Source: a virus
Taxonomy: Duplodnaviria; Heunggongvirae; Uroviricota; Caudoviricetes
Strand: one strand, 5' to 3'
Length of the DNA stretch: 15,276 nucleotides
IMG/VR virus record: IMGVR_UViG_2609459826_000005
Coordinates: 1 to 15,276 of that record
Shown one piece after another: positions 1 through 14,701 of this stretch. The notes beneath the pieces were generated by a model, which had not been told where the DNA came from, ran no database searches, and was given only the letters and a program-made list of their open reading frames with translations. The position numbers and the translations under genes are program-made. Positions within the stretch are counted from its first letter, which is position 1. Every line of letters begins with the position of its first letter.

Positions 1-357
1 CAGGTTAAACAGCAGTTGGCTGCGCTTGGCTATACCACCGTTCCTGACTTCATGATCGACGCCTACCTGTGCAAGCTGGCGAAGATAGAACCCTGCCTGA
101 TTGCCGCCGGTTACGACGATTGCGATCTGATGCTCATCCAAGTGTACGCAGTCACCTTGATGGCTCTGACGGCGTACACGCAGCGGATTAAGTCGCAGGG
201 TGCTCCGTCCGGTGCGTCCCGGTCGTTCGACTACAGCGACAGCGTGCTCAACATGCGTGACGCTCTGCTGGCGCTGGATACCTCCGGTTGCACGTCAGAG
301 CTGCCCATCGATGTCGGGCAGAAGGTTGGGATGTTCCTCGTTGTTGGGGGCTGCTGA
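1..357 (+). CDS. phage head-tail connector/adaptor protein (gp6-like), 5' partial
   Basis: Reading frame is open from base 1 (no stop upstream of the listed ORF at 16), ends TGA 355-357 overlapping the next start. Position immediately upstream of head-closure, neck and major tail genes. Family assignment is by synteny and general resemblance, not a recognised motif. Confidence 0.45.
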   Translation, partial: QVKQQLAALGYTTVPDFMIDAYLCKLAKIEPCLIAAGYDDCDLMLIQVYAVTLMALTAYTQRIKSQGAPSGASRSFDYSDSVLNMRDALLALDTSGCTSELPIDVGQKVGMFLVVGGC

Positions 358-530
358 TGACCTGGACACCCGTAAGCGTCCGGCTGCCGCGCTCATTCAC
401 TCGCATCTGGGTGCTGACCGACACCGGTCGGGAGACTACCGGCTACGTCAAATCGGATGGGGAGTGGTTCATTAACTGTGATCGCATCCGGGCTACTGGC
501 GCGGTGGTGCTGCGCTGGAGGGAGGACTGA
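357..530 (+). CDS. small hypothetical phage protein (57 aa), translationally coupled
   Basis: ATG at 357 overlaps upstream stop (TGATG) and its own stop overlaps the next ATG at 530 (TGATG). Coupling on both sides argues for a real small gene; function unknown. Confidence 0.4.
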   Translation: MTWTPVSVRLPRSFTRIWVLTDTGRETTGYVKSDGEWFINCDRIRATGAVVLRWRED

Positions 531-886
531 TGTCGGCAACCGCGAATTGGAGTTACACCGCCAAAGCCACCATCTGGCGCAAGGGCGCAGGCGGCAGGGA
601 TGAGAACGGCGACCCCATAAACGGCTATGACGCGCCGGTAGTCATCATGGTCGATTATGAGGGCGGGCTGTCAAAGCGCATCGGCAACCTGGGCACTGAA
701 ATCGTAGTGAAAAATACCGTCTGGACGGAATACGCGCTGGCCGACGCCGGTGATTACCTGCTGATTGGTGAATCTACCGATGCCGATCCGGTTGCTGCTG
801 GCGCTGACGAGGTGCGGCAGGTTATCCGCTACGCCGATACGTTCGAGCGAGTGGCGGATGATTTCGCCATCCTGACGGGAGTGTAG
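530..886 (+). CDS. head-tail joining / head closure protein
   Basis: 118 aa ORF in the canonical position between connector and HK97 gp10-like gene; start coupled to upstream stop. Assignment by synteny and size. Confidence 0.5.
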   Translation: MSATANWSYTAKATIWRKGAGGRDENGDPINGYDAPVVIMVDYEGGLSKRIGNLGTEIVVKNTVWTEYALADAGDYLLIGESTDADPVAAGADEVRQVIRYADTFERVADDFAILTGV

Positions 887-888
887 CT

Positions 889-1257
889 ATGGGCATCAAA
901 GTTAAGGGCATCAGTCAGGCGCGTAAAAACCTCAATGCCCTAGTCGGCGACATCCAGGGCCGTAAGACCATCAGGGCCATGCAGTCGGCGCTGATTATCG
1001 GGGGCTCGCAGGCTGCGCTCTATACGCCGATCGACACGTCCACGCTGCTGAATAGTCAGTTTCGCGACATAACCGTGAACGGCAATCGCGTAACGGGCCG
1101 TGTGGGATACTCTGCTAATTACGCGGTGTATGTTCACGACCCGAACGTACCTCAGACCTTCCGACGAGCTACAGCACGGAAAGAATTCCTCACGAAAGGC
1201 TTTGAGGATACGCGAAGACAAATCGATGCGGTGATCGCCAAGGAGATGTCGCTATGA
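889..1257 (+). CDS. HK97 gp10-like tail completion (neck) protein
   Basis: 122 aa, GGGAG 8 nt upstream of ATG 889; size and position typical of the HK97 gp10 family; stop overlaps next start (ATGA at 1254-1257). Confidence 0.55.
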   Translation: MGIKVKGISQARKNLNALVGDIQGRKTIRAMQSALIIGGSQAALYTPIDTSTLLNSQFRDITVNGNRVTGRVGYSANYAVYVHDPNVPQTFRRATARKEFLTKGFEDTRRQIDAVIAKEMSL

Positions 1258-1637
1258 CGCCCATGATGCATGAGCGGGTGCGCAACATGTTCGGTGATGC
1301 TGGCCTCACGGCCGGGTTCACGGTGCAGAAGTTGATGTATGACGACCCGGAGGATCTGACGCAGGCCGTGATGGTGTTCAGGCCAAACGGTGGTACCGAC
1401 GTACGAAACGATCTTGGTTCTGAGCATTACGTCCTGGTCGATGTCATTGCTGCGAAGGACAGGCGCGGCGACGCCGCTAATGCTGTTCAGCGTATTGTCG
1501 ATTATGTTCAGGCAAACCCTATGGCTGATGAGTGCGTCGGCTATATCCAGAATATGGGCGCAATCCCCGCCCCGGTGTTAACAGAAGAGGGGCGAATGAC
1601 CTTCCGGCTCCAGTTCGCCTGCACCTACGGCGAATAG
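1254..1637 (+). CDS. tail terminator / tail tube-head joining protein (gpU analogue)
   Basis: 127 aa ORF directly upstream of the major tail protein gene, translationally coupled to the preceding gene; followed by an intrinsic terminator. Confidence 0.5.
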   Translation: MTPMMHERVRNMFGDAGLTAGFTVQKLMYDDPEDLTQAVMVFRPNGGTDVRNDLGSEHYVLVDVIAAKDRRGDAANAVQRIVDYVQANPMADECVGYIQNMGAIPAPVLTEEGRMTFRLQFACTYGE

Positions 1638-1653
1638 CCAACCCAACCAAATA

Positions 1654-1680
1654 GACCCGCTACGGCGGGGTTTTTTTTTT
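1654..1680 (+). terminator. rho-independent terminator (CCCGC-TACG-GCGGG stem-loop + T10)
   Basis: Perfect 5 bp GC stem 1656-1660/1665-1669 with tetraloop, followed by ten T at 1671-1680, 17 nt after the stop at 1637. Confidence 0.7.
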
Positions 1681-1700
1681 AGTCAAAGAGGAAGTTTCAC

Positions 1701-2444
1701 ATGGCTAATTGCCCTAGCTCTAACGAGCGCCTATTCGGTGGCGCGGTGGTGCTGGAAGTCGCCGACGGCTGCCCGGATGTCAAACCACTTGAATCAGAGT
1801 GGAAGGCGCTGGCGGCCGGTACGTCCAAAGGCTTCGACTTCAACCCGAACTCGGTAACCTCAGATGCTGATGACGGCGGCGGCTATGTCGAAACCATCAT
1901 CACCAACAGTGACTTCACCCTGAGCTTTGAAGGTGAGGTCCGCAAGAAGGATAAACTGGATCAGTACGGCGTCGGCAAGTTCATCAAGTATTTCGCTGAC
2001 GAGCTGAAAGCCAAACGCCAGCCCGGAATCTGGGTGCGAATGGACTACGGCCCGGTTGAATTCATCGGCTACATGAACATCAACGCGCTGAGTTCTGACG
2101 GCGGCACCAACGATATCGTCACGTTCTCTACCGAGTTCAAAGTGGGCGATGCCAGCACCATCGAAGTTAACGAAGTGACGGCAGTGGCGGTGACCGGCGT
2201 AACGGTGACCCCAGCTACCAGCACTGGCGCGGCAGGCGGTACCAGCACCTTTACGGTGAATATCGCCCCGACCGGCGCAACCAACAAAGACTTCACCGTA
2301 GCATCAACCGATCCAACCAAAGCCACTGCTACCGCCTCCGGTACCACCGTGACGGTGAACCGCGTCGCCGCCGGCAGCGCGCAGATCGTCATTAACACCG
2401 AAGACGGTAATTTTGTTGCAACCCATACCGTTACCGTCAGCTAA
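1701..2444 (+). CDS. major tail protein with C-terminal Ig-like (Big_2-type) domain
   Basis: 247 aa; AAAGAGGAAG RBS at 1685-1694. The C-terminal ~90 aa is Thr/Val/Ala-rich with alternating beta-strand pattern (VTGVTVTPATSTGAAGGTSTFTVNIAPTGATNKDFTVASTDPTKATATASGTTVTVNRVAAGSAQIVINT), typical of Ig-like domains appended to siphovirus major tail proteins (cf. lambda gpV C-terminus). Confidence 0.8.
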   Translation: MANCPSSNERLFGGAVVLEVADGCPDVKPLESEWKALAAGTSKGFDFNPNSVTSDADDGGGYVETIITNSDFTLSFEGEVRKKDKLDQYGVGKFIKYFADELKAKRQPGIWVRMDYGPVEFIGYMNINALSSDGGTNDIVTFSTEFKVGDASTIEVNEVTAVAVTGVTVTPATSTGAAGGTSTFTVNIAPTGATNKDFTVASTDPTKATATASGTTVTVNRVAAGSAQIVINTEDGNFVATHTVTVS

Positions 2445-2504
2445 CGGCCATTCCAAAGGGTGGCCGCGGCTGCCCTTGATAATGACCGTTAACCTGGGTG
2501 AAAC

Positions 2505-3179
2505 ATGACAGTAGTAGCCATGAAAGAAATTGGCGAGATCGCCATTAGTGACAGCCGGGAAGGTGGTAAGGACTACTTACTGCGGCCTTCCTTCTCAGCG
2601 ATGATGAAGGTTGGTGAACCGGATGAGATCGTGAAGATGTACGCACTAATTCACGGTAGCGAGGTGCAGCAATTGATAGCCTCTTGTACTGCTGGCTTCG
2701 ACTCAATTCCTGAATGGATGGCTCCATCCTTCAATGTTGCAGCTGACAATCTGCTATTCACGTCAATGCTGGTATTGCAGGCCTGCTGTGATGATGATCT
2801 CGATGAGATAATTGGCGAGTGGGCTGATGAAGGCGGCAGAATCTCCTATCAGCCCGGCATGATGGCAAAAGATTTAATCATCATTTTCGCCCGCGAGCTG
2901 ATGCAGCACGGCATCGTAGGTAAAGCCAGTGTGCGACGCCTGCAGCGGCATGAGTCAGGCGAAACGACGAACGAGTTTAAGGCCTTCGACTACATCAGCG
3001 CGGCGCGTAGCCACTTCGGCATGAGCCGGGAAGAGGCTGCGGCGCTGACCATGACCGAGTTTCAGCTGATGCTGGCGCAGAAATACCCTGATCAGAAGGG
3101 TTTCACGCGGGATGAGTACGACGCGGTTGCGGATGACTTCCTGGCGAAACAGGCTGCGAGAAGGGCTAAGCAGAAGTAG
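2505..3179 (+). CDS. putative tail assembly chaperone (position-based)
   Basis: 224 aa acidic protein in the slot between major tail and tape measure genes, where gpG/GT-type chaperones are encoded. No slippery frameshift site recognised; the call is synteny-based only. Confidence 0.4.
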   Translation: MTVVAMKEIGEIAISDSREGGKDYLLRPSFSAMMKVGEPDEIVKMYALIHGSEVQQLIASCTAGFDSIPEWMAPSFNVAADNLLFTSMLVLQACCDDDLDEIIGEWADEGGRISYQPGMMAKDLIIIFARELMQHGIVGKASVRRLQRHESGETTNEFKAFDYISAARSHFGMSREEAAALTMTEFQLMLAQKYPDQKGFTRDEYDAVADDFLAKQAARRAKQK

Positions 3180-3195
3180 CCCACCCAAATAATCA

Positions 3196-3223
3196 AGCCT
3201 CGGCATTGTCCGGGGCTTTTTTG
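3196..3223 (+). terminator. rho-independent terminator after the chaperone gene
   Basis: AGCCTCGG / CCGGGGCT 8 bp stem (one G-U wobble) with CATTGT loop followed by TTTTTTGT, 17 nt after stop at 3179. Confidence 0.6.
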
Positions 3224-3261
3224 TACCCGCAGTAAATCAACCGCGCTTCACACGCGCATTG

Positions 3262-3267
3262 TATAAT
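3262..3267 (+). promoter_or_regulatory. consensus -10 hexamer TATAAT upstream of the KilA-N gene (candidate moron promoter)
   Basis: Exact TATAAT at 3262-3267 immediately preceded by TG, located between a terminator and the KilA-N start. No good -35 found at 17 bp spacing. Confidence 0.35.
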
Positions 3268-3341
3268 CCTAGAGCCTACAGTAAGCGAGCCTGAGAGTTG
3301 CCGTTATAGGTGGCGACCTCTCTAGGAGGCGGCTTCTCTGT

Positions 3342-3905
3342 GTGACAGGCTCTGCTTTCTATAGGCAAATCGCAATGAAATATCCAACCGTATCAGTAAG
3401 CGGCGTTTCCGTTCGCGTTGATGACGAAGGGCGCTATAACCTTAATGATCTTCATGCAGCCGCAGTGGCAAACGGAGAGGCAACAGAACAGCAGCGCCCA
3501 AGTCAGTTTTTGCGTAGTGCTCAAGTTAAGCGCTTCATAAAAGCACTAAAAGCCAAAGTGCAAAAAAGCACTCTGGAACAAATTCAACCACTTAATGTTA
3601 TTAAAGGTGGGGATGAACCAGGCGTTTGGGGTGTTGAACTGTTGGCGATCCGTTATGCCGCATGGATTAAGCCGGAATTTGAGATTGAAGTATATGAGGT
3701 GTTCCGAACGGTGGTTCGCCTCGGCATTAGTGCCATGTCTCGCCTGAACAAAATCGACCACATCATCAACACCGAATCGAAAGAGATCAGCAAGTGCGCC
3801 AGCCAGATGGCCCGGTGGGGTGTCGGTGGTCGTAAGCAGCTATTGCACGCAGCAAGAGATCGCGTCGCCGATGAAGTTCAGATGTACCTGCCAGGCATCG
3901 CGTGA
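3342..3905 (+). CDS. KilA-N domain protein
   Basis: GTG start 3342 with AGGAGG at 3325-3330 (alternative ATG at 3375). N-terminal region contains the hallmark KilA-N pattern (VSVRVDDEGRYNLNDLHAAA...RPSQFLR...IKGG...GVWGVELLAIRYAAWIKPEFEIEV). Confidence 0.8.
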   Translation: MTGSAFYRQIAMKYPTVSVSGVSVRVDDEGRYNLNDLHAAAVANGEATEQQRPSQFLRSAQVKRFIKALKAKVQKSTLEQIQPLNVIKGGDEPGVWGVELLAIRYAAWIKPEFEIEVYEVFRTVVRLGISAMSRLNKIDHIINTESKEISKCASQMARWGVGGRKQLLHAARDRVADEVQMYLPGIA

Positions 3906-3912
3906 AGGTGGC

Positions 3913-3935
3913 AAGGCCCACTCAGGTGGGCTTTA
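3913..3935 (+). terminator. hairpin terminator after KilA-N gene (weak T tract)
   Basis: AGGCCCAC-TCAG-GTGGGCTT hairpin (GCCCAC/GTGGGC perfect stem) followed by TTTAG; 8 nt after stop at 3905. Confidence 0.45.
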
Positions 3936-3960
3936 GATCTCTTATCTCGGGGAGAGGGCG

Positions 3961-4155
3961 GTGAAACCTAAGCAAACATTAACCATTAACAATTTGATAC
4001 CATTCCCAAGCGAAGCGCCTAGAGAAGAGACCATAGAGTGTAATGATGTTTTTCTTGATAATTCAATGCTAGAGGAAAAAATTTCTACTCGAATAGGTTT
4101 TAGTAGATTGATTTTTGTTAATGAAATCAACTCGATCAATTCCATCTCGGAGTGA
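3961..4155 (+). CDS. small hypothetical protein (64 aa) in AT-rich moron segment
   Basis: GTG start with GGGGAGAGGG just upstream; ends 37 nt before the peptidase gene. A 73 aa ORF on the opposite strand (3942-4163) covers the same DNA, so strand and reality are uncertain. Confidence 0.3.
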   Translation: MKPKQTLTINNLIPFPSEAPREETIECNDVFLDNSMLEEKISTRIGFSRLIFVNEINSINSISE

Positions 4156-4192
4156 ATTATCATATGCGCATACCTTTCAATAGGATGCGAAA

Positions 4193-4771
4193 ATGATTAA
4201 CGAATATGATTTCGTGACAGCGGCAGGTCATATAGCTAAACATGAAGCCGGTCACTGGCTTGCGGCGTTTAAATTAGGCTGGAACCCAAGAGGTATAGGC
4301 TTGAGAGTGCCGCCTCATGCTAAAGATCACATGGGTTATTCAGAAACAAGTCACAAAGTCGATTTAAGCAGCATTGAGGATGTCCGGGATTACGCAAGAG
4401 GCAGGGTAAAAATTCTCTACAGTGGCGTATATGCAGAGCACTTTGACGGAAAAGACTTTGATCACGAATCCATAATGCGTGATATGAAGCGTGGCGGCGG
4501 TGCTTATTCTGATTTCTGGAAAGCTGAAGAAATCTACTTCTTTTACTACAACTGCCTCGACACAAAGGGAGAGTGGGATGAAGAGTTTCAGCCTGTTATT
4601 TGCGACGTTCAGCTCATGATCGAAATGCATTATGACTTCATCACCTTGGTAGCCAAATTTGTTATGGCGAGGGCAAATTTTGTCGGTCAACGCATAGAGA
4701 TTTCATCCACCGACCTGATCAGGCTGTTCGAAAATAGCGCCATTAATCTACCGGATCACGACCCTGCCTAA
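4193..4771 (+). CDS. standalone FtsH-like (peptidase M41-type) zinc metallopeptidase domain protein
   Basis: 192 aa; HEAGH at residues 17-21 (AGHIAKHEAGHWLAAFKLGWNPRGIGLRV), followed by a PRG motif and LYSG...AE / GGGAYSD segments. This parallels the FtsH protease domain (HEAGHA...IIPRGRALG...LYGGRLAEE...GASND) as recalled from E. coli FtsH. No AAA+ ATPase or transmembrane part. AGGA 7 nt upstream of ATG. Confidence 0.65.
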   Translation: MINEYDFVTAAGHIAKHEAGHWLAAFKLGWNPRGIGLRVPPHAKDHMGYSETSHKVDLSSIEDVRDYARGRVKILYSGVYAEHFDGKDFDHESIMRDMKRGGGAYSDFWKAEEIYFFYYNCLDTKGEWDEEFQPVICDVQLMIEMHYDFITLVAKFVMARANFVGQRIEISSTDLIRLFENSAINLPDHDPA

Positions 4772-4883
4772 CTGCGGGTTTTTCCGGCGCTAGCCTCTTG
4801 AGATCAATAAATCAGCGTTTGCCGTTGCGCCTGTGCTATTCCTGGGTAGGATGTTTCCACTTTTACCAATGGGGAATAGGGAT

Positions 4884-5270
4884 ATGAAGCGTTTACTGAT
4901 CATGGCTATTGCTGGGCTATCACTAACCGGCTGCGGCAAACCTGCACCGACAAGAGATGAGGCCTTTCAAATGGCTAAGCAGGAAATGTCGATGGCTCTT
5001 TGTGGCGATAGGAGTGCAAGCTGTTTTATTGCTGAAGGAGGAAGCTCTAAAGTATCAGAGAAGAAAAATGACAATACCTATAACGCCTCAGCTACATTTA
5101 ACAGCCTAAAAGGGAAGGGCAAGGATTTGGAATATAGCGGCGGGGGCGTTTTTTTCGAAATAGATGACGAAACAAGGGCTGTATATGTCAAATCCATCTC
5201 AGCATGGTCTGAGGATGGAAAAAAGAGCATTGAGCTTTGTGGTTCGAACTATAAATTCTGTACTAAATGA
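4884..5270 (+). CDS. small lipoprotein (128 aa), candidate superinfection-exclusion moron
   Basis: Likely start ATG 4884 (in-frame upstream GTG/ATG at 4833/4851/4869 lack a signal peptide). N-terminus MKRLLIMAIAGLSLTGC has a basic n-region, hydrophobic core and lipobox L-T-G-C. Followed by a strong terminator. Confidence 0.7.
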   Translation: MKRLLIMAIAGLSLTGCGKPAPTRDEAFQMAKQEMSMALCGDRSASCFIAEGGSSKVSEKKNDNTYNASATFNSLKGKGKDLEYSGGGVFFEIDDETRAVYVKSISAWSEDGKKSIELCGSNYKFCTK

Positions 5271-5286
5271 AGCCCTAATAAACAGC

Positions 5287-5309
5287 AACCCGCCGAGGCG
5301 GGTTTTTTT
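5287..5309 (+). terminator. rho-independent terminator (CCCGC-CGAG-GCGGG + T7) abutting the tape measure gene
   Basis: 5 bp GC stem 5289-5293/5298-5302, tetraloop, seven T at 5303-5309. Confidence 0.7.
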
Positions 5310-5324
5310 ATGCCCGGAGAGAAC

Positions 5325-7727
5325 ATGGCCAGCGAGGAGCAGGTAGGTAATATTGTCTATCAGGTGCAGATGGATGTTGCCAATCTTATTGAGGCGCAGC
5401 GTAAAGTAAACGAACGCCTTGAGAAGATGAATAGTGGAGTATCAAAAGCTGCCAGCAAGTTTGATGAGCTTCAGACCAGTATAAGCAGAGTAGCTGGCGC
5501 GATCGCTGCTTCAATTGTCGTTGAATGGGGGAAGGCATTTCTTGTAGCCGCTGACAATATGAGCCAACTTAACGCTCGAATTGAAAGGCTAACTGGTAGT
5601 GCTTCTGTCGCATCTCAGACCATGCAAAGTCTGATGAATATAAGCTCAACAACAGGAGGATCTCTCCAGGATACAGCCAAGCTGTGGGAAACGTTAAGCA
5701 CTGCGTTGCGGAGCACTGGTGCCACTAATGGCCAAATATTGCAGCTTACCGATACCCTTCAAAAAATTGGTCGAATTGGAGGCACATCTGCCGAGGAAAT
5801 GGCTAATGCGCTGCGCCAATTCGGACAGTCTATTTCATCCGGCGTTGTTAGAGCAGAAGAATTTAACTCTATTCTTGAGCAAATGCCTGAGTTGGCAAGG
5901 CAGATGGCGGCAGGGCTTGGAATTGGTATTGGTGAATTGCGTCAGTTGATGCTGGATGGGAAACTTTCTGCTCAAGATGCACTCAATGCAATTCAGAAGC
6001 AAACCAGCATCGTGAATGCAGAGTTCGCAAAATTGCCCCGCACCTTATCTCAGGCCAATGCTGCTCTTACCAATTCGTTTCTGTCAATGGTTGACTCAAT
6101 TAACCAGACTACAGGCGCGAGCAGAACCATGGTGGCTGTAATTGACTCCATCACCACAGCCATAGACAGGCTGACTGGGAAAACAGCTTCAGCAGCAGCT
6201 CAAATTTCCGATCTCAATAGCACAGCAGAGATGTTCGAGCGAAGGGCGAGGACATGGTCTTGGCTGGGCCTGGATGGTTGGGAGGCTCAAAGCAAGGCGC
6301 TTGCAGGGCTAAGCAACAAAGCTGCAGCTCTCGTTGGGGATATTTCTGCCGTGACCCAAGCCTCTCAAGAGGCCTCTAACACAAAGCCAATAAACATTAA
6401 AACGACCGGAGACGATGCGGCTACATCGAAGCTGATAAAAAACTCAGAGCGCCGCTTAGCGCTCGCCAAGCTGGAAGGTGAAGCCAGAGCCAGACTGCAG
6501 GCCCAATATGATGCAGCAGACGCTGGCATCACCGATCAGAAACGCATCAAAGCTCTTCAGGATGAATACGCAGAAACCTATCGGGTTACTGAGGCGCGGA
6601 AAGAGAGCAACAAAGAGGGCAAGACCTCCGCCTCGCAGGCTGAATCCATTGCTCAGAAACTGGCGAGCCTCAAACAGCAATCCGAACTCGCTGCAGATTC
6701 GACCAGTGAGTTGAGTCGAGAGCAGGCCATGCTAAGGGCCGAGCAATCCCTCGGCAGCGCCGCCACCCAGTCCCAGATTAAAGAGGCAAGGGAATACGCA
6801 GCCAGGACGTGGGACGTTGCTAATGCCCTGAAAATGCGTCAGCAGGCGGAGCAGGCCTCCCGGTTTATAAATCAGGAAGTGTCAGCTGCGAAGGTTCAAC
6901 GCGATCCTTACACAGGTGAAGCGCAGGACCCAGCCGCGCAGGTCAACGAGGAAGAGCAGCGTAAACTCGAGGCCCTGGCTAAATACCAGGAACTGGGCGT
7001 AATCAACGCGCAGCAGTTCGAAGACGGAAAGACGGCCATCGCAAGGCAGGCATCGAACGATCGCATCAGTATTGCCCAGCAGGAGGCTAAGCGTCAGGTT
7101 GACGTGATGAACATGCTGCTTGGCGGGATCGGTGATGGTTTCTCAGGCCTGGCTGAAATCGTGTCTAAAAGCGCTGGCGAAAGCAATGCCGCTTACAAGA
7201 CACTGTTCGCTATCAGTAAAGCCTTTGCGGTTGCTCAGTCCACTCTGAACCTTCAGCTTGCACTCTCAAACGCCATGGCCTCGGGTCCATTCCCCTGGAA
7301 CATGGCAGCAATGGCGCAGGTTGCTGCAGCTGGCGGCCAGGTGATCTCATCTATCGGCGCAATGTCATATGGTGGCGGGCGCGAACACGGCGGCCCGGTA
7401 TCTGCCAGCTCCATGTACCGTGTGGGCGAGGGCGGTAAACCTGAGATTTTCAAAGCCAGCAATGGCAGCCAGTACATGATCCCCGGCGATAACGGTCGCG
7501 TCATCAGTAACCGGGATATTGGCGGGGGTGGCGGGGCGTTCAATTACAGCCCGGTCATTCAGGTCAACGGTGATCCGACAGAGCAGACGCTTGCCATGCT
7601 TGAAGCGGCGGTTAAGCGCGGTGCGCAGCAAGGCTATGCCATGGCCGTCAGCGATGTCGCCAGCGGCAAAGGTAAGCTTTCCAACGCGCTGACCAACAAC
7701 TTCAACACCAGTCAACGCCTCACATAA
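5325..7727 (+). CDS. tail tape measure protein
   Basis: Long ORF (800 aa from ATG 5325; in-frame ATG also at 5310 but it abuts the terminator T-run, whereas CCCGGAG at 5313-5319 is a well-spaced RBS for 5325). Ala/Gln/Glu-rich coiled-coil-like middle, Gly-rich C-terminus, and position between chaperone and minor tail genes. Confidence 0.9.
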   Translation: MASEEQVGNIVYQVQMDVANLIEAQRKVNERLEKMNSGVSKAASKFDELQTSISRVAGAIAASIVVEWGKAFLVAADNMSQLNARIERLTGSASVASQTMQSLMNISSTTGGSLQDTAKLWETLSTALRSTGATNGQILQLTDTLQKIGRIGGTSAEEMANALRQFGQSISSGVVRAEEFNSILEQMPELARQMAAGLGIGIGELRQLMLDGKLSAQDALNAIQKQTSIVNAEFAKLPRTLSQANAALTNSFLSMVDSINQTTGASRTMVAVIDSITTAIDRLTGKTASAAAQISDLNSTAEMFERRARTWSWLGLDGWEAQSKALAGLSNKAAALVGDISAVTQASQEASNTKPINIKTTGDDAATSKLIKNSERRLALAKLEGEARARLQAQYDAADAGITDQKRIKALQDEYAETYRVTEARKESNKEGKTSASQAESIAQKLASLKQQSELAADSTSELSREQAMLRAEQSLGSAATQSQIKEAREYAARTWDVANALKMRQQAEQASRFINQEVSAAKVQRDPYTGEAQDPAAQVNEEEQRKLEALAKYQELGVINAQQFEDGKTAIARQASNDRISIAQQEAKRQVDVMNMLLGGIGDGFSGLAEIVSKSAGESNAAYKTLFAISKAFAVAQSTLNLQLALSNAMASGPFPWNMAAMAQVAAAGGQVISSIGAMSYGGGREHGGPVSASSMYRVGEGGKPEIFKASNGSQYMIPGDNGRVISNRDIGGGGGAFNYSPVIQVNGDPTEQTLAMLEAAVKRGAQQGYAMAVSDVASGKGKLSNALTNNFNTSQRLT

Positions 7728-7736
7728 GGAGTTCCC

Positions 7737-8207
7737 ATGGGGATCAGCAGCACCATTGATTTCCCGCACCAGTACCTACCAATGCCCCAGCGTTCCGGGC
7801 ATGGATTCACTCCCGTAAGCCCCCTCCAGCGTTCCATCATGACATCCGGCCGCACGCGCCAGCGTCGCAAATACACCTCGGTTCCGACTGAGGCGGGGGT
7901 TTCGTGGGTGTTTAATGATGCACAGGCGCAGCTGTTTGAGGTGTGGTTCAGGGATGTGATCACTGATGGCGCAGCGTGGTTCAACATGCGCATGCGCACG
8001 CCAATGGGCGTTGGTGACTACGTCTGCCGGTTCAAGGATATCTACGACGGGCCGGTGCTGTTCGGGTTAGGGTTCTGGAAATTCACGGCAACTCTGGAAC
8101 TGTGGGAACGTCCTATTCTGCCGCCTGGCTGGGGTAATTTCCCTGAGTTCATCGTGGGGCAGAGCATTATCGATTACGCGCTCAACAAGGAGTGGCCTGA
8201 AGCATGA
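7737..8207 (+). CDS. minor tail protein (distal tail/tip assembly)
   Basis: 156 aa; AAGGAG at 7725-7730; first gene after tape measure; stop overlaps next start. Confidence 0.6.
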   Translation: MGISSTIDFPHQYLPMPQRSGHGFTPVSPLQRSIMTSGRTRQRRKYTSVPTEAGVSWVFNDAQAQLFEVWFRDVITDGAAWFNMRMRTPMGVGDYVCRFKDIYDGPVLFGLGFWKFTATLELWERPILPPGWGNFPEFIVGQSIIDYALNKEWPEA

Positions 8208-8692
8208 CCAGTCCAACCCTGAACAGGCTTTACGCCAGCGGCGGCAGCGAGGCGCTACTGAATACGTTGCAGATTACCGTCGGTGGGCAGGATTACTGGC
8301 TGGTCGAGAACTTCGAAGATATCACCGCTGTTACAGAGGCGGGGGCGACAGTGACATTCCAGGCAGCTGCAATGGCCGTCGCGCTGCCAGCCAGGAACAA
8401 AGACGGTACGCAGGATCTGCAGTTCGCCATCAGCAACATTGACGGCATCGTTTCCACTGCGATACGCAACGCCCTGGCTAACCTGAACAACGGCGCGCTG
8501 GTAATGCGGCAGTACATATCGACCGACCTTAGCTACCCGGCGGCACCACCTATCGTTCTGCAGATTAAGGACGGGTACTGGAAGGCCACAGAGGTGCAAA
8601 TTACTGCCGGATTCCTGAATATCCTGAAAACCGCGTGGCCGCGATACCGATACACGCTTCCTGTGTTCCCGGGACTCCGCTACCTACAGTAG
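8204..8692 (+). CDS. minor tail protein
   Basis: 162 aa; ATG overlaps upstream stop (ATGA); AAGGAG 9 nt upstream; syntenic with lambda L-position genes though not recognisably lambda L. Confidence 0.6.
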   Translation: MTSPTLNRLYASGGSEALLNTLQITVGGQDYWLVENFEDITAVTEAGATVTFQAAAMAVALPARNKDGTQDLQFAISNIDGIVSTAIRNALANLNNGALVMRQYISTDLSYPAAPPIVLQIKDGYWKATEVQITAGFLNILKTAWPRYRYTLPVFPGLRYLQ

Positions 8693-8701
8693 GAAATCAC
8701 C

Positions 8702-9082
8702 ATGTTCAATCCAGATAAATACCGTTCTGTCGAGTGGCAGAAGGGCGGGCGCGCTTACCCCGCGCTTGACTGCTTTGGCATCGTCAACGAAATCAGGCGC
8801 GATCTGGGTCTGGATCCGTGGCCGGATTTCGCCGGAGTCACGAAGGATGATAACGGCCTAGATCGGGAAGCGCGCGGGCTGATTGCTGGCCTGACTCGAT
8901 GTGAACCGACCCCGGGCGCAGGTATCGCCTGTTATTCCGGCTCTGTTGTTACACACGTTGCCATCGTTGTCGAGATTGACGGCCAACTGCGCGCTGCGGA
9001 GTGCAATCCCCGCACTAACGTAACCTTTCTGCCGCTGGCGCGGTTTGCGCGCCGCTTTGTTCGCGTGGAGTATTACCAGTGA
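8702..9082 (+). CDS. NlpC/P60-family tail protein (gpK-like)
   Basis: 126 aa with putative catalytic Cys in ALDCFGIV and downstream His in VVTHVAIVVE, the Cys-His arrangement of NlpC/P60 peptidases; position equivalent to lambda K. Confidence 0.65.
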   Translation: MFNPDKYRSVEWQKGGRAYPALDCFGIVNEIRRDLGLDPWPDFAGVTKDDNGLDREARGLIAGLTRCEPTPGAGIACYSGSVVTHVAIVVEIDGQLRAAECNPRTNVTFLPLARFARRFVRVEYYQ

Positions 9083-12000
9083 CGATCCGTATCTATCCCT
9101 CCCGGTTGCCGGGCGAACCGTTGGAAACGCATCAACATGAAACGATGACCCTTAGCGCCTGGTTTGCGCAGAACGTGAAGGACTGGACGCCGGATCAGCA
9201 GCATCCGGTTGCGGTTGAAATCGACGGTGTCCCCGTCCCGCCGGCAGAGTGGACACTGCGCGTTATCAAGCGAGAAACAGACGTCAGGTTGTATCCGGTG
9301 CCATACGGTACCGGCGCAGAAATCGCTATCTGGGTTGCCGTCAGCGTAGCTGTCGCCTCTGCTGCGTACAGCATCTACATGATGAGTACAATGTCACAGG
9401 CGGGTGGCGGCGGTGCCCAGGCGGCCAGCGGAGACCAGATTGACCTCAACCCGGCCAAAGCGAACGCTGCGAAACTTGGTGATCCCATCCGGGAAATCTT
9501 CGGCAAATATCGGGTCTGGCCTGATTACGTTGTGCAGCCGGTAAGCCGGTTCGTCAACGAGACCAGCATGGAAACCAGCATGTTCCTGTGCGTGGGCGTC
9601 GGTGACATGGTGATTAACCAGTCCGATATCCGGATTGGCAATACGCCGATCTCCGCTTTCGGTACCGACGTGCGTTACACCATCTACCCACCTGGCACTA
9701 ATGTATCCGGCGACACGCGTACCGAAAACTGGTTCAACTCACCAGAGGTCGGGAATACCGGTTCCGGTACCGCCGGGCTGGACCTTGGCTCAAGCGGTCC
9801 GGAGACGGTCAGTATTATCGCTGACGCTCTGGTAGTGTCCGGAAACTCCATCACGCTCGTTGACGTATCGGCGTCAGGCGGCGATGAGGAGATCCCGCCG
9901 TCGTGGACTGTAGGAACGGTGATCACCGTGCTGGCGCCAAACTCTTATACGGTGGTGTCATCCGGCGGTTACAGCGTCATTTATGGCGGGATAGAGGAAC
10001 TTGCACCTTATGTCGGCATGCCGGTGACGCTGAACTATAACGGCAACGACTACGACCTGGTGATCGCCAGCTATGCCCCGGGCGTTCCGGCGGTACCCGG
10101 GGTTGGCGGCAGTGCCGCGACCTTAACCGCCAGCGCCGCGCCGACGACTTATGATTTCAGTACCGCACCTGTGACGTTCAGCATCAGCTGGCAGGGTACG
10201 ACCTACCCGGTCTCGCTGGTTACCAATTACGTCACCATGTCGGGTCTGGTTTCCTCGATCACCTCGCAGCTCTCAGGCTCCGGTCTGATTGCCAGAGATA
10301 ACAGTGGGCGTCTCGAAATCGGTGAGGCCAGCAGCCCGTTCGCTGGCGGTTCCATAACCAACAGCCCTTTACCCGCTGCTGTGTTCGGCGATGCGCCAGT
10401 CAATAAGGCGGGCGTGAAATCAACGGGCGGCACGGCGGAAGTCAGGGCGCACATTACCCTGGCTTACAACAGCGCCACCGGCACGCCGTTTACCGGGTTA
10501 CCGGAAGGCATTCAGCGGTTCTCGCTGGGGTTGGCTGGCAATCAGTTCCGGATCACCGATGTGGACAGCCAGACGGTCACGATTGAGCGGTTAACTGTGA
10601 CAACAGGCTCTGGCGGTGAAACCATCACGACGCCGGATCCATCGTGGCCTGGCTTCACTGAGCGCATGCTGCTGGATGCGACTGTAACGGGTGTCAGTGA
10701 CGATTATGAGTGGGTCGGCCCGTTCCTGGCCTGCCCGGACGGGGAAACGCTGGACGCATTCGAGGTGAACATCAACTTCCAGAGCGGCCTGGTGCGTTAT
10801 ACCGACCAGGGGAATAAACGCTCCATGCCGGTACGCCTGGTGATCCAGTATCGCAAGGTCGGCACCACCGCCTGGCAGCAGCAGTCTCCGTTCTATTCAC
10901 GCAGCACTGAAAACCAGATCGGGTTTACGCATCGCTACAGTGTGTCGCCGGGCCAATATGAGATCCGGATGCGCCGCACTGAACCGGTTAAGGGGGGCAG
11001 TACCCGCGACCAGGTATTCTGGCAGGCGCTGCGCTCACGACTCAGCAAGCGCCCCACGAAGTACAATGGTGTCACCACCATGGCGCTGACCGTGCGCACA
11101 GGGAATCGCCTGGCGGCCATGTCCGATCGCCGGATAAGCGTCACGCCAACCCGGATTTACAGTGGCGGCAGAACGGCGCGGAGCATTAGCGGGGCGCTTT
11201 ACCACGTCCTAGGGTCGCTGGGGTTCACGGCCAGTCAGATAGATACGGCGGCAATTGACGCGCTGGAACAAACCTACTGGACGCCACGCGGTGAGAAGTT
11301 CGACTGGGCGAGCGGGGAGAGCAAGTCAGCGCTTGAGGTATTGCAGAAAATCACCAACGCAGGGATGGGGTATTTTCTGCTGTCTGATGGGCTGGCGTCT
11401 GCCGGCAGGGAAGGCATTAAACCCTGGGTAGGCATGATCACCCCTCAGGAAACCACCGAGGAGCTGCAGACCGCGTTTAAAGCCCCGTCACAGGACGATT
11501 ACGACGGTGTGGACGTGACGTATATCAACGGCACCACCTGGGCAGAGGAGACCGTGCAGTGTCGCCTGCCTGGCAATCCTACGCCGTTGAAAATCGAGAG
11601 CTATACGCTGGATGGTGTTCTGGATGAGGACCGGGCCTACCGCATCGGCATGCGCCGGTTGCTGGGCTACCAGCTGCAGCGCCTGCAGCACACCACCTAC
11701 ACCGAGATGGATGCGCTCTGCTATGAGTTCATGGATCGCATAGTGCTGGCCGATGACATCCCGGGCAGCCAGACTCTTAGTTGCCTGATTACCGATATGA
11801 CGTATGACAGCAGCAAAATTACCATGACGCTAAGTGAGCCGCCGGACTGGTCGTTCCAGAACCCGCGCGTGATTATCCGCCATCAGGATGGCAGGGCATC
11901 AGCCATGGTGGTGCCGACACGCATTGACGACTTCACCATCTCGGTGCCGTACAGCGCCGCGCTGGAGCCCGAACTGTGGGCAATGAACGACGCGTACATT

Positions 12001-12165
12001 GAGCCGCCGCGACTGCTGTTCTGCTCGTCTGTGCGGGTGCCGTATGACGCCCTGGTAGGCGAAATATCACCGGGAAACGACGGTATCAGTCAGGTAACAG
12101 CAATTCAGTATCACCCCGGAAAATATGCCTACGATGACGCCACTTACCCCGGCGACGTTACTTAA
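9079..12165 (+). CDS. central tail fibre / tail tip protein with gpI-like N-terminal domain and gpJ-like core
   Basis: 1028 aa; GTG start overlaps upstream stop (GTGA). N-terminal ~200 aa resembles lambda gpI organisation (short soluble domain, hydrophobic stretch IAIWVAVSVAVASAAYSIYMM, then a PAKANAAKLG...IFGKYRV segment). Further in, QYEIRMRRTEPVKGGSTRDQVFWQALRS matches the lambda J NIRMRR...TLW motif as recalled. Confidence 0.75.
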   Translation: MTIRIYPSRLPGEPLETHQHETMTLSAWFAQNVKDWTPDQQHPVAVEIDGVPVPPAEWTLRVIKRETDVRLYPVPYGTGAEIAIWVAVSVAVASAAYSIYMMSTMSQAGGGGAQAASGDQIDLNPAKANAAKLGDPIREIFGKYRVWPDYVVQPVSRFVNETSMETSMFLCVGVGDMVINQSDIRIGNTPISAFGTDVRYTIYPPGTNVSGDTRTENWFNSPEVGNTGSGTAGLDLGSSGPETVSIIADALVVSGNSITLVDVSASGGDEEIPPSWTVGTVITVLAPNSYTVVSSGGYSVIYGGIEELAPYVGMPVTLNYNGNDYDLVIASYAPGVPAVPGVGGSAATLTASAAPTTYDFSTAPVTFSISWQGTTYPVSLVTNYVTMSGLVSSITSQLSGSGLIARDNSGRLEIGEASSPFAGGSITNSPLPAAVFGDAPVNKAGVKSTGGTAEVRAHITLAYNSATGTPFTGLPEGIQRFSLGLAGNQFRITDVDSQTVTIERLTVTTGSGGETITTPDPSWPGFTERMLLDATVTGVSDDYEWVGPFLACPDGETLDAFEVNINFQSGLVRYTDQGNKRSMPVRLVIQYRKVGTTAWQQQSPFYSRSTENQIGFTHRYSVSPGQYEIRMRRTEPVKGGSTRDQVFWQALRSRLSKRPTKYNGVTTMALTVRTGNRLAAMSDRRISVTPTRIYSGGRTARSISGALYHVLGSLGFTASQIDTAAIDALEQTYWTPRGEKFDWASGESKSALEVLQKITNAGMGYFLLSDGLASAGREGIKPWVGMITPQETTEELQTAFKAPSQDDYDGVDVTYINGTTWAEETVQCRLPGNPTPLKIESYTLDGVLDEDRAYRIGMRRLLGYQLQRLQHTTYTEMDALCYEFMDRIVLADDIPGSQTLSCLITDMTYDSSKITMTLSEPPDWSFQNPRVIIRHQDGRASAMVVPTRIDDFTISVPYSAALEPELWAMNDAYIEPPRLLFCSSVRVPYDALVGEISPGNDGISQVTAIQYHPGKYAYDDATYPGDVT

Positions 12166-12184
12166 CAGCATTTAAAAATTACCT

Positions 12185-12206
12185 GACCCGCTTCGGCGGG
12201 TTTTTT
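12185..12206 (+). terminator. rho-independent terminator (CCCGC-TTCG-GCGGG + T6) abutting the fibre gene
   Basis: 5 bp GC stem 12187-12191/12196-12200, tetraloop, six T at 12201-12206. Confidence 0.7.
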
Positions 12207-12221
12207 ATGCCCGGAGCGAGC

Positions 12222-13889
12222 ATGACCACATACCGCACGAATAATCCATTTGGGTCAATGGATCCGAAAGACCTTTTCGATAACTCCCAGAATCTTGACT
12301 ATGCCCTAAACGATATAACAAAATCCTTGTGGACAGACCGCTTAGGAAGAGTAAGGAAAAGTTATTGGGGAATGGAGCAGGCTTTTTCTGCTCAACTTAT
12401 CAGCCAGCAGCAAAGATTTAATTATTTCATTCAGAATTCAGGGTATAAAGTAATTGGTGAATATACCCAAGGTCCTCTGACTGTTACTGATTATAATCAA
12501 CTGATTCGCTATCAGAGTGAATTTTATAAATTAAATTCTTCTACTTCCATTCCATTTACCACTACGGGCAATGACTCCACGTCATGGTCAAACGATTCTT
12601 CACATTTTGTCAGTGTAGGGGATGCGGCCATTCGCCAAGAATTATCTGGTGCTGGCGGCTCAGGTTTGATTGGAGATTTACTCAAGCCTATCACGTGGGA
12701 TGGGTTTTCTGGAGGAGCGGCCTGGGACGGTGTAACCAATGATAATATTCCCTACCAGGCGGCAGCTCAATATGGTCGAAAATTTTTAATGCCATATGGC
12801 GTTGGAAATATAACAGAGTATTCAGTAGGTCTTTTTGCGCCGAATTTCTCTGTTCTTGGTGAGGCAGAGCAATTAGGCTCATTGCAATATCCTGTTGATG
12901 ATTTCCGTCCATCAAGGACGGATACAAAATACTCAAAGTATCACGAAACGGATCCAGCATCTAATCGATGGGATTCCTGTTCTATACATACAATTGTTAA
13001 ATGTCCTCAGGACGGTGCTAATCCAAAAGGAAATGCGGCAGCTGTAACTGGATATGCCAGGGCTATCAATAGCGAGGGTGGTGATCATGTTGGCGTACAT
13101 GGTAGAGCAGAAGGTGATACCAGTTACGACTTCGGTACTGGGATGGGGTTGTGGGGTGGATGGCTGTCAGCCGTTTACAGACCTAATACAGGCTCAGCTG
13201 GGAAGCCAATAAAGTCTATTATTGGTTGTGAGATTGACGTGCAAAATGATGGGCCACACGCACAAAACCCCAATCCGGATGGTGTTGGTGAGCTGCGTGG
13301 TCTCGCGGTAGGGAATACTGGCACCGGCCATCTTAATCAAGGCGTTGATGTATTCGCTAACAATAGCGGTGCGCGTGGAAGGTGGTGGATGGGCGTTCAC
13401 GTACGTGCTAATTCCATTGTAGGAAGACATCTGGTATCAACAGAGGGGGAAGTTGGTAATGCAATGGTGATTGCTGGAGCGGCATCGTCAGGGACGCGTT
13501 ACGGCGGATTAAAATTTAGTAAATATCCCTACACAGCGGTAGGACAAGGAGGTCATCTTTCTTATGGAATTGATTTCAGGGAGGCAACAATTCGCTTACA
13601 AAACGCGATTGTAATGGGGCCTCAGCACCGGATTACATGGGAGCCTGACACTGCAAAGGGTGTTGCGGTAGAGACAGAGGGAGGGGATGTAATTACTTTC
13701 CGGGGATATAACATAGCCATAAATAACTCCAAAGTTTTGGGGACTAGGCAAACTGGTATTTTTAATATGTCGGGGACGGCAGATGGAACCTCATACAATA
13801 CAGAAACCGTCACACTTGTAAATCTTGCCAGATACCTCAAGAAAGTAACTGATGCATTAATATTTCATGGCCTTATTGGCCCAACTTGA
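12222..13889 (+). CDS. tail fibre / tailspike protein (putative receptor-binding protein, possible depolymerase)
   Basis: 555 aa from ATG 12222 (in-frame ATG at 12207 abuts the terminator; CCCGGAG RBS serves 12222). Last large gene of the tail cluster; visibly lower GC than neighbours; Gly/Asn/Thr-rich C-terminal half suggestive of a beta-rich binding or enzymatic domain. Confidence 0.65.
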   Translation: MTTYRTNNPFGSMDPKDLFDNSQNLDYALNDITKSLWTDRLGRVRKSYWGMEQAFSAQLISQQQRFNYFIQNSGYKVIGEYTQGPLTVTDYNQLIRYQSEFYKLNSSTSIPFTTTGNDSTSWSNDSSHFVSVGDAAIRQELSGAGGSGLIGDLLKPITWDGFSGGAAWDGVTNDNIPYQAAAQYGRKFLMPYGVGNITEYSVGLFAPNFSVLGEAEQLGSLQYPVDDFRPSRTDTKYSKYHETDPASNRWDSCSIHTIVKCPQDGANPKGNAAAVTGYARAINSEGGDHVGVHGRAEGDTSYDFGTGMGLWGGWLSAVYRPNTGSAGKPIKSIIGCEIDVQNDGPHAQNPNPDGVGELRGLAVGNTGTGHLNQGVDVFANNSGARGRWWMGVHVRANSIVGRHLVSTEGEVGNAMVIAGAASSGTRYGGLKFSKYPYTAVGQGGHLSYGIDFREATIRLQNAIVMGPQHRITWEPDTAKGVAVETEGGDVITFRGYNIAINNSKVLGTRQTGIFNMSGTADGTSYNTETVTLVNLARYLKKVTDALIFHGLIGPT

Positions 13890-13915
13890 TTTAATAAATA
13901 TTCTGAGGATAATAA

Positions 13916-14083
13916 ATGGACAGCCAAGTAGTACAAAATATCATGCAATTTATGCTGCGTGTTAATCTTTCCGGACAGGAGGTCCCGGCGTTTAATGTTG
14001 CAATGAATGCATTGCAGGAAGAGTTGATCAAAAGTGAAAAAAACCATGAAAGGGAGGTTGAATAATGGCTTTGAAAACAAATG
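13916..14083 (+). CDS. small hypothetical protein (55 aa)
   Basis: ATG 13916 with GAGGA 6 nt upstream, in an AT-rich stretch right after the fibre gene; overlaps the next ORF by 19 nt. Below the 60 aa cut-off of the supplied ORF track; found by manual translation. Confidence 0.3.
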
Positions 14084-14310
14084 ATGCCGGTTCAGGGTTA
14101 TATATACGCGTCGAGTTACCACGCGTACATGGCAAATACCGTGCGCAGTTTGACCTTGTTCAATATGTTAACCACCCTGTCACAGGAGATAAGGCGGAAG
14201 TGGGTCGTGAAACAATGGAGTGTGATTACGATCTGAATGGAGCTAATGTAATTGAGCAATGCTACTTTTACGCCAAGGCCAAGGTGCCTTTTGGAGTTTT
14301 AGATTGCTAG
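14065..14310 (+). CDS. hypothetical protein (81 aa)
   Basis: ATG 14065 preceded by strong RBS AAGGGAGG at 14048-14056; no recognisable motif. Confidence 0.45.
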   Translation: MALKTNDAGSGLYIRVELPRVHGKYRAQFDLVQYVNHPVTGDKAEVGRETMECDYDLNGANVIEQCYFYAKAKVPFGVLDC

Positions 14311-14342
14311 GCTCTCGCGCAGATCTCTCTCCGATTGCACAT

Positions 14343-14609: not shown

Positions 14610-14665
14610 CTTCTGTAATCGGCATTGATAGGCGTCGCCTCATTGATCTGCACCCCTTTCAAAAC

Positions 14666-14685: not shown

Positions 14686-14701
14686 TAAAGGAGTGCAGAT
14701 C

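Follow-up and report, generated by a model that had tools for sequence, protein, structure and literature searches.

Two intergenic sequences in a viral tail module raise the question of why different tail genes should be preceded by nearly the same short stretch of DNA. The window analysed here is the whole of a 15,276-nucleotide stretch from a virus of the Caudoviricetes (IMG/VR record IMGVR_UViG_2609459826_000005, positions 1 to 15,276), and it is the tail module of a lambdoid siphovirus prophage. One copy of the sequence, called the cassette here, lies before the tape measure protein (TMP) gene and the other lies before the tail fibre gene. Are the cassettes linkers at which phages exchange gene modules by homologous recombination, as was proposed in a preliminary description of this DNA, or are they signals for gene expression? 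The analysis favours the second answer. Each cassette is most probably a compact intergenic junction in which a predicted intrinsic terminator is joined to the Shine-Dalgarno (SD) sequence and start codon of the next gene, and the two copies would be alike through a common consensus and not through recent copying.

The two cassettes and a third hairpin

Positions 5288-5331 and 12186-12228 are identical at 38 of 44 aligned positions, and their alignment has a gap of one base. When the 44-mer is aligned locally, with gaps, to the remainder of the window it scores 51, compared to a mean of 20.4 (standard deviation 1.9, maximum 29) for 300 dinucleotide-preserving shuffles. This score replaced a blastn-short self-comparison, which was unsuited to the task (its best match was an unrelated 16-mer). 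A 21-mer search that allowed up to three mismatches found two occurrences in the window, where 0.00 were expected. Both copies contain ATGCCCGGAG, at 5310-5319 before the TMP gene and at 12207-12216 before the fibre gene. The near-identical repeat noticed in the preliminary description is thus confirmed, and so is the hairpin with the same stem that it placed before the major tail protein gene, at 1656-1669. Only the hairpin is common to all three sites, as the ribosome binding site (RBS) at the third is GAGGAAG, unlike that of the cassettes. In relatives the T-run of this third hairpin is interrupted (GGGTTTTCTTTTTT), and there is no homology breakpoint at the site. All three sites were recovered independently by a repeat finder and by a terminator scan. 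The repeat search in the window found no shared homology between the flanks of the two cassettes. Rfam gave 0 matches at the gathering score in the whole window, and the sequence string of the cassette is absent from the searchable literature. It had also been remarked that both cassettes precede genes of low G+C content. This stood for the fibre copy, where the G+C content steps from 0.563 upstream to 0.417 downstream, but not for the TMP copy, which lies inside a low-G+C block (0.453 upstream and 0.477 downstream).

A predicted terminator joined to a ribosome binding site

Each cassette is a predicted Rho-independent terminator that abuts the RBS of the next tail gene. The stems of the TMP and fibre copies have 7 bp with five G-C pairs and are followed by seven and six T residues, respectively, and the hairpin before the major tail protein gene has 5 bp followed by a G and ten T residues. 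The hairpins are present in both the minimum free energy and the centroid folds. At the orthologous TMP junctions of relatives the stems are CCCCG/CGGGG, CCTCGCC/GGCGGGG, CCCTCC/GGAGGG (also CCTCC/GGAGG) and CCGC/GCGG, in flanks that are otherwise unrelated. A perfect hairpin of at least 5 bp abuts the T-run in 51 of 63 unique T7ATGCCCGGAG sites that were not chosen on their stems; 21 different stems are represented, and the corresponding value for shuffled upstream sequence is 6.5%. A hairpin of at least 4 bp is present in 132 of 135 sites. The stem changes are compensatory, both among relatives and among unrelated phages, and selection is on the predicted structure rather than on the sequence of the stem.

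What is the role of the ATGCCC that follows the U-tract? After CCCGC-N4-GCGGG-T7 the preferred bases and their frequencies are A (0.65), Y (0.89), G (0.76), C (0.45), C (0.58) and Y (0.77), and after CCGCC-N4-GGCGG-T7 they are A (0.66), Y (0.84), G (0.67), C (0.47), C (0.69) and Y (0.78). Control scans (viral-contig loci L249-L359 and L427-L544) gave the same A-Y-G-C-C-Y preference after U7 with or without an RBS and start codon downstream. After a third class of stem, GCCCC/GGGGC, the consensus is weakly present. The ATGCCC belongs to the predicted terminator, because the consensus recurs after two different stems whether the RBS is present or not. The CCC itself is replaced or missing at the same junction in relatives, which have ATGGAG, ATGCTGGAG or ATGTCCGGAG. 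More distant relatives have T7-ATG-GAG or T7-ATGCTGGAG at the fibre site, and the CCC is therefore dispensable.

The first 26 nt of the consensus cassette are identical to the rpoC terminator of E. coli K-12 (AACCCGCTTCGGCGGGTTTTTTTATG), and every one of the 5426 complete E. coli genomes contains this 26-nt terminator. It has been reported that strong terminators need dinucleotides at the edges of the bubble, GC at -11/-10 and purine-U at -2/-1, around (U)7 (bioRxiv 10.64898/2026.05.29.728758). High-throughput mapping and mutagenesis in the same study defined the GC(U)7RU (HUB) motif, in which RU is required for termination, and the bubble-edge elements resemble the elemental pause signal GS(N)7RY. 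The discussion of that preprint adds only that efficiency could be modulated by the sequence beyond the release site. Both cassettes have A-U at -2/-1 of the predicted release site, which is the RU element, with G at +1 followed by CCC.

Two other uses of the same bases were considered and rejected. One is a riboswitch-like alternative in which CGGG of the 3' arm pairs with the CCCG further on. It has 4-5 bp and a 9-nt loop, is far weaker than the stem of the terminator and is not seen in the predicted folds. A sigma-70 promoter within the cassette was rejected as well, since there is no -10-like hexamer and the promoter scan lists none.

The second half of the cassette, GGAG with an ATG after 5 nt, is to all appearances an ordinary translation initiation region. 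Among the matches listed, an open reading frame (ORF) of at least 50 amino acids starts 3-12 nt after the GGAG in 221 of 244 exact cassettes. The spacing between GGAG and ATG is 5-8 nt in 209 of these 221 occurrences, and the first ATG is in frame with the downstream gene in just 126 of them. In three relatives (L003-L005) the first ATG is ATT. The predicted true starts are the second ATG codons (5325 and 12222), because the PHROG profiles of the TMP and fibre families align from there, and the first ones (5310 and 12207) are part of the terminator. Profiles phrog_1538 and phrog_3519 align from residues 1-4 of the TMP ORF, and alignments to phrog_17635/32929 cover residues 1-151 of the fibre ORF. 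The reading as terminator, RBS and start codon is borne out by the hairpin that abuts the U-tract, the compensatory stems and the GGAG 5 nt before the ATG at which the family starts. An SD sequence extended by the CCC was rejected, since a C in this place is unable to pair with the 16S 3' end.

One practical consequence of the cassette is that annotation pipelines make inconsistent start calls. RefSeq/PGAP places the TMP start at the terminator ATG in one relative (L001, 6632) and at the true second ATG in another (L002, 7845); these are the orthologues of window positions 5310 and 5325.

A further pairing is possible in the fibre copy, between AUGC (12207-12210) and GCAU (12220-12223); it would enclose half of the start codon in a stem and leave the SD sequence in a loop. 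The frequency of the predicted structure is 0.48, and the 60-nt fold has a z-score of -2.3. Spacers that end in GC and are able to form pairing of the AUGC/GCAU type are found in many other occurrences of the cassette.

How widespread is the junction?

The exact sequence GCGGG-T6-(N)-ATGCCCGGAG, a 21-22-mer, was found at no fewer than 120 loci in a species-representative set of bacterial genomes and in at least 119 IMG/VR viral contigs. The carriers in the genome set include Pseudomonas, Enterobacterales, Halomonas, Delftia, Thiocapsa and some alphaproteobacteria. Among the matches listed, 10,830 of 27,966 locus pairs share nothing beyond the cassette within ±1.5 kb. The downstream ORFs of these matches form 38 protein clusters in which tail genes are dominant (tape measure 65, two fibre families 25 and 10, virion protein phrog_384 16, gpM-like minor tail protein 12, baseplate hub 11 and J-like 5). 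Their upstream ORFs are far more diverse, with 109 clusters that include many small lipoprotein-like or membrane-like genes.

At least 80% of the cassette is present in 154 GenBank phage records, including Pseudomonas phage phiPSA1, where it lies before the TMP gene, and virulent N4-like Pseudomonas phages. In an O157:H7 lambdoid prophage a hairpin-T9-GCCCGGAG-ATG lies between the gpT-like and TMP genes. At least 80% of the full cassette is present in about 10% of E. coli genomes (562).

In the N4-like Pseudomonas phages LIT1, PEV2, YH6 and their relatives, an 88.6% match to the whole 43-nt cassette was observed before a hypothetical gene or an HNH endonuclease gene. The design of the junction is therefore not restricted to temperate phages or to tail genes.

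The preliminary description had named a generic host terminator as the finding that would speak against its proposal. This is what the terminator half is, as the rpoC identity shows, whereas the full cassette is largely confined to phage gene junctions. The terminator half is generic, and its full fusion to an RBS is characteristic of junctions inside phage operons. Such a fusion is expected where terminators sit in tightly packed, antiterminated operons.

Are the cassettes sites of exchange?

Homology was followed across the cassettes in 89 related loci that had been collected with the TipJ protein, and the genes on either side were recorded for 214 unique terminator-RBS junctions. At the TMP cassette, homology runs across the junction in just 5 of the 89 loci. 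It begins exactly at 5285-5287 in three loci (L669, L682 and L737), and the remaining loci share nothing with the window between about 4890 and 6600. The N-terminal type of TMP found in the window occurs at 12 unique junctions with six different upstream genes. Other TMP types have 10 junctions with 6 upstream genes, 7 with 7 and 4 with 4, and the lipoprotein type of the window occurs with three TMP types. Genes thus reassort on either side of the TMP cassette, which is a true mosaic joint and forms the right border of a hypervariable moron slot. That the exchange is mediated by the repeat itself does not follow from the presence of a mosaic joint.

The situation at the fibre cassette is different. 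Homology spans it in 80 of the 89 loci and ends at 12152-12210 in just four or five. The ends of homology cluster inside the fibre gene, at 12292-12319 (about codons 24-33) and at 12623-12644 (about codons 135-141). The joints of fibre exchange lie within the conserved N-terminal anchor and not at the cassette, and it is at these two intervals that the receptor-binding part of the fibre is really exchanged. Of the two main fibre types, one occurs at 41 junctions with three upstream clusters and the other at 21 junctions with one. The module boundary that was assigned to both copies has therefore to be kept for the TMP copy and given up for the fibre copy. In the nearest E. coli relatives homology is continuous through both cassettes wherever the flanking genes are shared. 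The breaks in these relatives fall at 3121-3170 (the end of the DUF6246 gene), at about 4788-4798, within the TMP gene at 6400-7380 and within the fibre gene at 12298-12644. Only one of them (L009) has homology that starts at 12180, with the fibre module behind an acyltransferase gene.

Could the cassette act as a recombination linker in addition to its role as terminator and RBS? A core of about 22-40 nt would then serve as a patch of homology at which phage RecT/Exo or host RecA crosses over, swapping the modules on either side. This is unlikely, although part of what it predicts is seen. The 21-22-mer heads non-homologous genes in the locus pairs that share the cassette alone, and one-sided homology is common among the matches listed (443 pairs downstream only, 129 upstream only and 558 on both sides). 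In downstream-only pairs of high identity, the limit of homology falls between -30 and +8 relative to the hairpin. The homology starts at 5285-5287 in three relatives, the reassortment of accessory genes and TMP N-terminal types and the L009 fibre module also suit a linker. The 80 relatives that run through the fibre cassette and the breaks inside genes in the nearest E. coli relatives do not fit. RecT, an exonuclease and Gam are encoded in a relative, which would suit such a crossover. The invariant core is short for efficient homologous recombination. Short conserved boundary sequences are an established concept (PMC3029335). The same source summarises the argument that intergenic joints are what selection leaves after illegitimate recombination, and selection can be expected to let mosaic joints survive at any intergenic site. 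The conservation of each part of the cassette is already accounted for by its function.

The loci were also examined for recombinants and for crossover positions. No recombinant accompanied by both of its parents was found among the 237 loci in the matches listed, and a four-combination test of upstream gene against TMP type found none. The linkage of stem, loop, middle box and spacer is about as strong to the upstream as to the downstream partner, and no crossover position emerges from it. The matching of loop and spacer in pairs with one-sided homology is confounded by divergence. A linkage test on protein clusters was dominated by the TipJ-fibre junctions and showed no asymmetry when these were left out. 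The proposal that the repeat mediates homologous exchange is not upheld by these tests.

The accessory gene slot before the tape measure protein gene

The slot from 3180 to 5288, between the chaperone-like gene and the TMP gene, holds three stacked accessory (moron-like) genes (3342-5270). Their G+C content is 0.44-0.50, compared to 0.53-0.59 in the neighbouring tail genes. Terminator-like hairpins at 3195 and 4763 stand on either side of the first two genes, and the last gene is followed by the one at 5287. Homology is lost at 3100-3199 in 29 relatives. One relative (L001) is without the segment 3167-4787, and another (L009) is without any insert, its DUF6246 gene leading straight to the terminator, RBS and TMP gene. 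HK97 gene 15, the first moron to be described, occupies the slot between the chaperone and TMP genes, and morons are defined by having their own promoter and terminator (PMC3594210). By their position the three accessory genes of the window are candidates for exclusion or conversion genes.

The last accessory gene is preceded by a non-coding leader of about 85 nt (4798-4883) that is almost invariant in six prophages with differing flanks. A 35-mer from it (4820-4854) is exact in 44 viral contigs, where it lies ahead of at least 15 different small ORFs, nearly all with an N-terminus of the signal-peptide or lipobox kind. At about 30 of 42 unique leader loci, the cargo ORF leads directly into hairpin-T6-8-AT(T)G(C/T)CCGGAG-ATG and a TMP gene. 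The leader looks like a fixed promoter or leader for swappable cargo genes. Its candidate promoter, TTGCGC-N16-TAGGAT, is a weak match that the promoter scan did not list. The RNA fold of 4796-4890 is no better than that of shuffled sequences (z +0.93), and a role for RNA structure is unsupported there. The hairpin of the TMP cassette is best read as the putative terminator of a unit of fixed leader, variable cargo and terminator that is set against the RBS of the TMP gene.

A wider proposal can be built on this arrangement, although it is unlikely to be right. The TMP cassette and the leader 400 nt upstream would form a fixed expression platform (promoter/leader, variable secreted-protein gene, terminator-RBS) within the tail operon, and it would be common to a large group of enterobacterial lambdoid prophages. 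The conserved flanks would let RecT/Exo swap the cargo by double homologous crossover, which would make the platform an integrase-free slot for lysogenic-conversion or exclusion genes. The near-universal core could be a shared micro-homology by which accessory genes move between the tail operons of unrelated phages.

How might the junction work?

The first part of the proposed junction consists of a G+C stem of 5-7 bp with a stable tetraloop, a tract of six or seven U residues, the bubble-edge, pause-like A-U and G, and a C-rich stretch. The SD sequence GGAG comes directly after it, with the start codon of the next tail gene 5 nt further on. The late operon would be transcribed by a Q-antiterminated RNA polymerase; the gene for an antiterminator Q is seen in a relative. 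During lytic growth the polymerase would read through the hairpins. In the lysogen the hairpins would stop transcripts from moron promoters and spurious transcripts inside the tail operon, and the TMP and fibre genes would stay silent. In the read-through mRNA they may be 3' stabilisers or processing points that help to set gene dosage. The TMP copy would also be the terminator of the last gene in the hypervariable accessory slot. The two copies are similar since neither departs far from a consensus that proteobacterial phages very commonly carry. Recent copying is not the source of the similarity, because the differences between the spacers (AGAAC/AAAAT before the TMP gene and CGAGC before the fibre gene) are kept site by site in relatives.

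Several observations weigh against this explanation. The 60-nt fold of the TMP copy is no better than that of shuffled sequences (z -0.38). Positions -11/-10 are GG in both cassettes and not the GC preferred in HUB terminators, which fits only the looser GS of the pause consensus. The C-rich stretch after A-U-G is without an established mechanism, and no described role was found for C-C-Y at positions beyond the release site. Of the sampled sites with the CCCGC/GCGGG stem, about 8% have the exact 10-mer next, compared to 0 of 121 and 0 of 122 for two other stems; being tied to one stem, the 10-mer indicates that stem and tail are not fully independent. This linkage hints that some cassettes have spread as a unit, and redundant sampling of related prophages could also account for it. 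A terminator directly before the abundant major tail protein gene (1656) does not suit a simple role in turning expression down. The explanation as a whole was drawn from sequence.

A different view is that ATGCCCGGAG and the hairpin form a start-associated control element that binds a phage or host factor and tunes the translation of tail genes or the decay of their mRNA, by analogy with the SAS/ESAS elements of mycobacteriophages. This is very unlikely. The position of the cassette just before the start codons of many unrelated families does resemble that of SAS/ESAS (PMC3203893), but a genome has two copies of the cassette and 11-19 of SAS, there is no match to an Rfam family, and the many unrelated phage types and hosts in which the cassette occurs, including the virulent N4-like Pseudomonas phages, have no obvious factor in common. 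The CCC does not pair with 16S rRNA and might be thought to have such a function, yet the G-C-C-Y preference is also seen after U-tracts without any RBS, and the CCC is replaced or lost at the same junction in the relatives described above. The exact 10-mer exceeds by far what independent positions would give (about 8%, where multiplying the per-position frequencies yields roughly 0.02%, an estimate made here), and this would suit a bound element, as would the AUGC...GCAU pairing in the fibre copy, which can put the SD sequence in a loop. The last alternative, a recent duplication or gene conversion that copied one junction onto the other within the genome, would explain the 38 of 44 identities and the common 5-nt spacing, but it is hardly credible when relatives always have GGAG-(C/T)GAGC-ATG at the fibre site and GGAG-A(G/A)AA(C/T)-ATG at the TMP site, the flanks of the two copies share no homology and the same core is found in hundreds of unrelated contexts.

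Gene order and relatives

The features of the window are collected in the table. The relatives were taken from E. coli genomes and IMG/VR, and GenBank phages have distant similarity only (megablast gave short matches of 74-80%). Mosaic relatives at about 87% identity are found in E. coli chromosomes, where most adjoin yciB/ompW. The relative in strain GN25 is a complete lambdoid prophage with integrase, RecT/exonuclease/Gam, NinB, RusA, an antiterminator Q family gene, holins and terminase.

Table. Positions of the cassettes, the genes around them and other features in the window
Feature	Position	Strand	Remarks
Tail terminator gene	1254-1637		
Third hairpin, CCCGC-TACG-GCGGG	1656-1669 (to 1680 with G + T10)	+	before the major tail protein gene
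Major tail protein gene	1701-2444		ATG 1701
DUF6246 protein gene	2505-3179		tail chaperone-like; in tail chaperone position
Terminator-like hairpin after the DUF6246 gene	3195-3218	+	z -2.7; left edge of slot
KilA-N domain protein gene	3342-3905	+	accessory
Accessory ORF	4193-4771	+	phrog_36675 protein
Terminator-like hairpin + T5	4763-4783	+	after ORF 4193-4771
Invariant non-coding leader of the last accessory gene	4798-4883	+	candidate promoter TTGCGC 4825-4830, N16, TAGGAT 4847-4852
Accessory ORF	4884-5270	+	lipoprotein-like phrog_20460 protein
Predicted terminator hairpin before the TMP gene	5287-5304	+	stem CCCGC 5289-5293 / GCGGG 5298-5302, loop CGAG; 7 bp including A-U extensions
U-tract T7, TMP copy	5303-5309	+	
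ATGCCC box, TMP copy	5310-5315	+	terminator-distal; no start codon
SD sequence GGAG, TMP gene	5316-5319	+	5 nt (AGAAC) before ATG 5325
TMP gene	5325-7727	+	Pfam TMP_3 8.5e-55; starts at second ATG
TipJ-type tip protein gene	9079-12165		
Predicted terminator hairpin after the TipJ gene (fibre copy)	12185-12202	+	stem 12187-12191 / 12196-12200, loop TTCG; kept in 80/89 relatives
U-tract T6, fibre copy	12201-12206	+	
ATGCCC box, fibre copy	12207-12212	+	terminator-distal
SD sequence GGAG, fibre gene	12213-12216	+	5 nt (CGAGC) before ATG 12222
Tail fibre gene	12222-13889	+	conserved N-terminal anchor (about 140 amino acids), then variable part

Variations in gene content were also observed away from the cassettes. 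Several relatives have an extra ORF of 183 nt between the DUF1833 and NlpC/P60-like genes (L002 11231-11413, L003 12049-12231 and L007 8824-9006), which the window is without (8692-8704). Near this site homology stops at 8600-8699 in 20 relatives and resumes at 8700-8799 in 15. Two hybrid prophages, L007 and L008 (E. coli PCP06021 and MDK9L1), have HK97-like head and proximal tail genes (gp17, assembly protein T) and a distal part of the window's type from about window position 7800 on (TipJ, fibre N-terminus). The tape measure gene of these hybrids is annotated as broken.

Comparison with known systems

Known kinds of element cover everything described here. How broadly the near-exact junction is distributed, and the slot with its fixed platform, are of value as details and do not come as a surprise. 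The hundreds of phages that carry a near-exact junction before tail genes are a natural data set for studying the design of terminators in antiterminated operons and the contribution of G-C-C-Y to termination. The hypervariable slot before the TMP gene, with its conserved borders, is a convenient place to seek new exclusion or conversion genes. It also lets an old question be tested, which is whether boundary sequences or illegitimate recombination are the source of phage mosaics.

The cassette resembles the SAS/ESAS elements of cluster K mycobacteriophages only superficially. These are also asymmetric motifs that contain an RBS and lie before the starts of unrelated genes, often with an inverted repeat ahead (PMC3203893). 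However, SAS occurs 11-19 times per genome in one phage cluster and is absent from the host (PMC3203893), whereas the cassette has two copies per genome, is found in several bacterial orders and carries a terminator hairpin of host type.

The boundary or linker sequences proposed to mediate module exchange in lambdoid phages (Susskind and Botstein; Clark et al. 2001, cited in PMC3029335) are resembled in position by the TMP junction, where a short conserved island has unrelated sequence on one or both sides. The cassette differs in that the island is explained by terminator and RBS, is not tied to one phage group and marks no boundary at the fibre junction.

The accessory genes are closest to the lambdoid morons described by Juhala and Hendrix, such as HK97 gene 15. 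They occupy the same slot between chaperone and TMP genes, are absent in relatives, have a lower G+C content, are each followed by a terminator hairpin and, in the case of the last gene, are preceded by a conserved candidate promoter or leader. In contrast to HK97-type morons, three genes are stacked here, and the last sits on a fixed platform (the leader of about 85 nt and the near-invariant terminator-RBS) that is common to at least 15 cargo genes and whose promoter is a candidate.

The cassettes themselves are like the HUB-type Rho-independent terminators, for example that of rpoC. Both have a G+C stem-loop, a U6-7 tract, A-U with G at +1 and compensatory stems, in addition to the 26-nt identity. 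The cassettes, as predicted terminators, have GG rather than GC at -11/-10. They are also placed differently, since an rpoC-type terminator stands at the end of an operon and is followed by a promoter region, whereas the cassette lies inside an operon, with the next SD sequence 6 nt after the U-tract.

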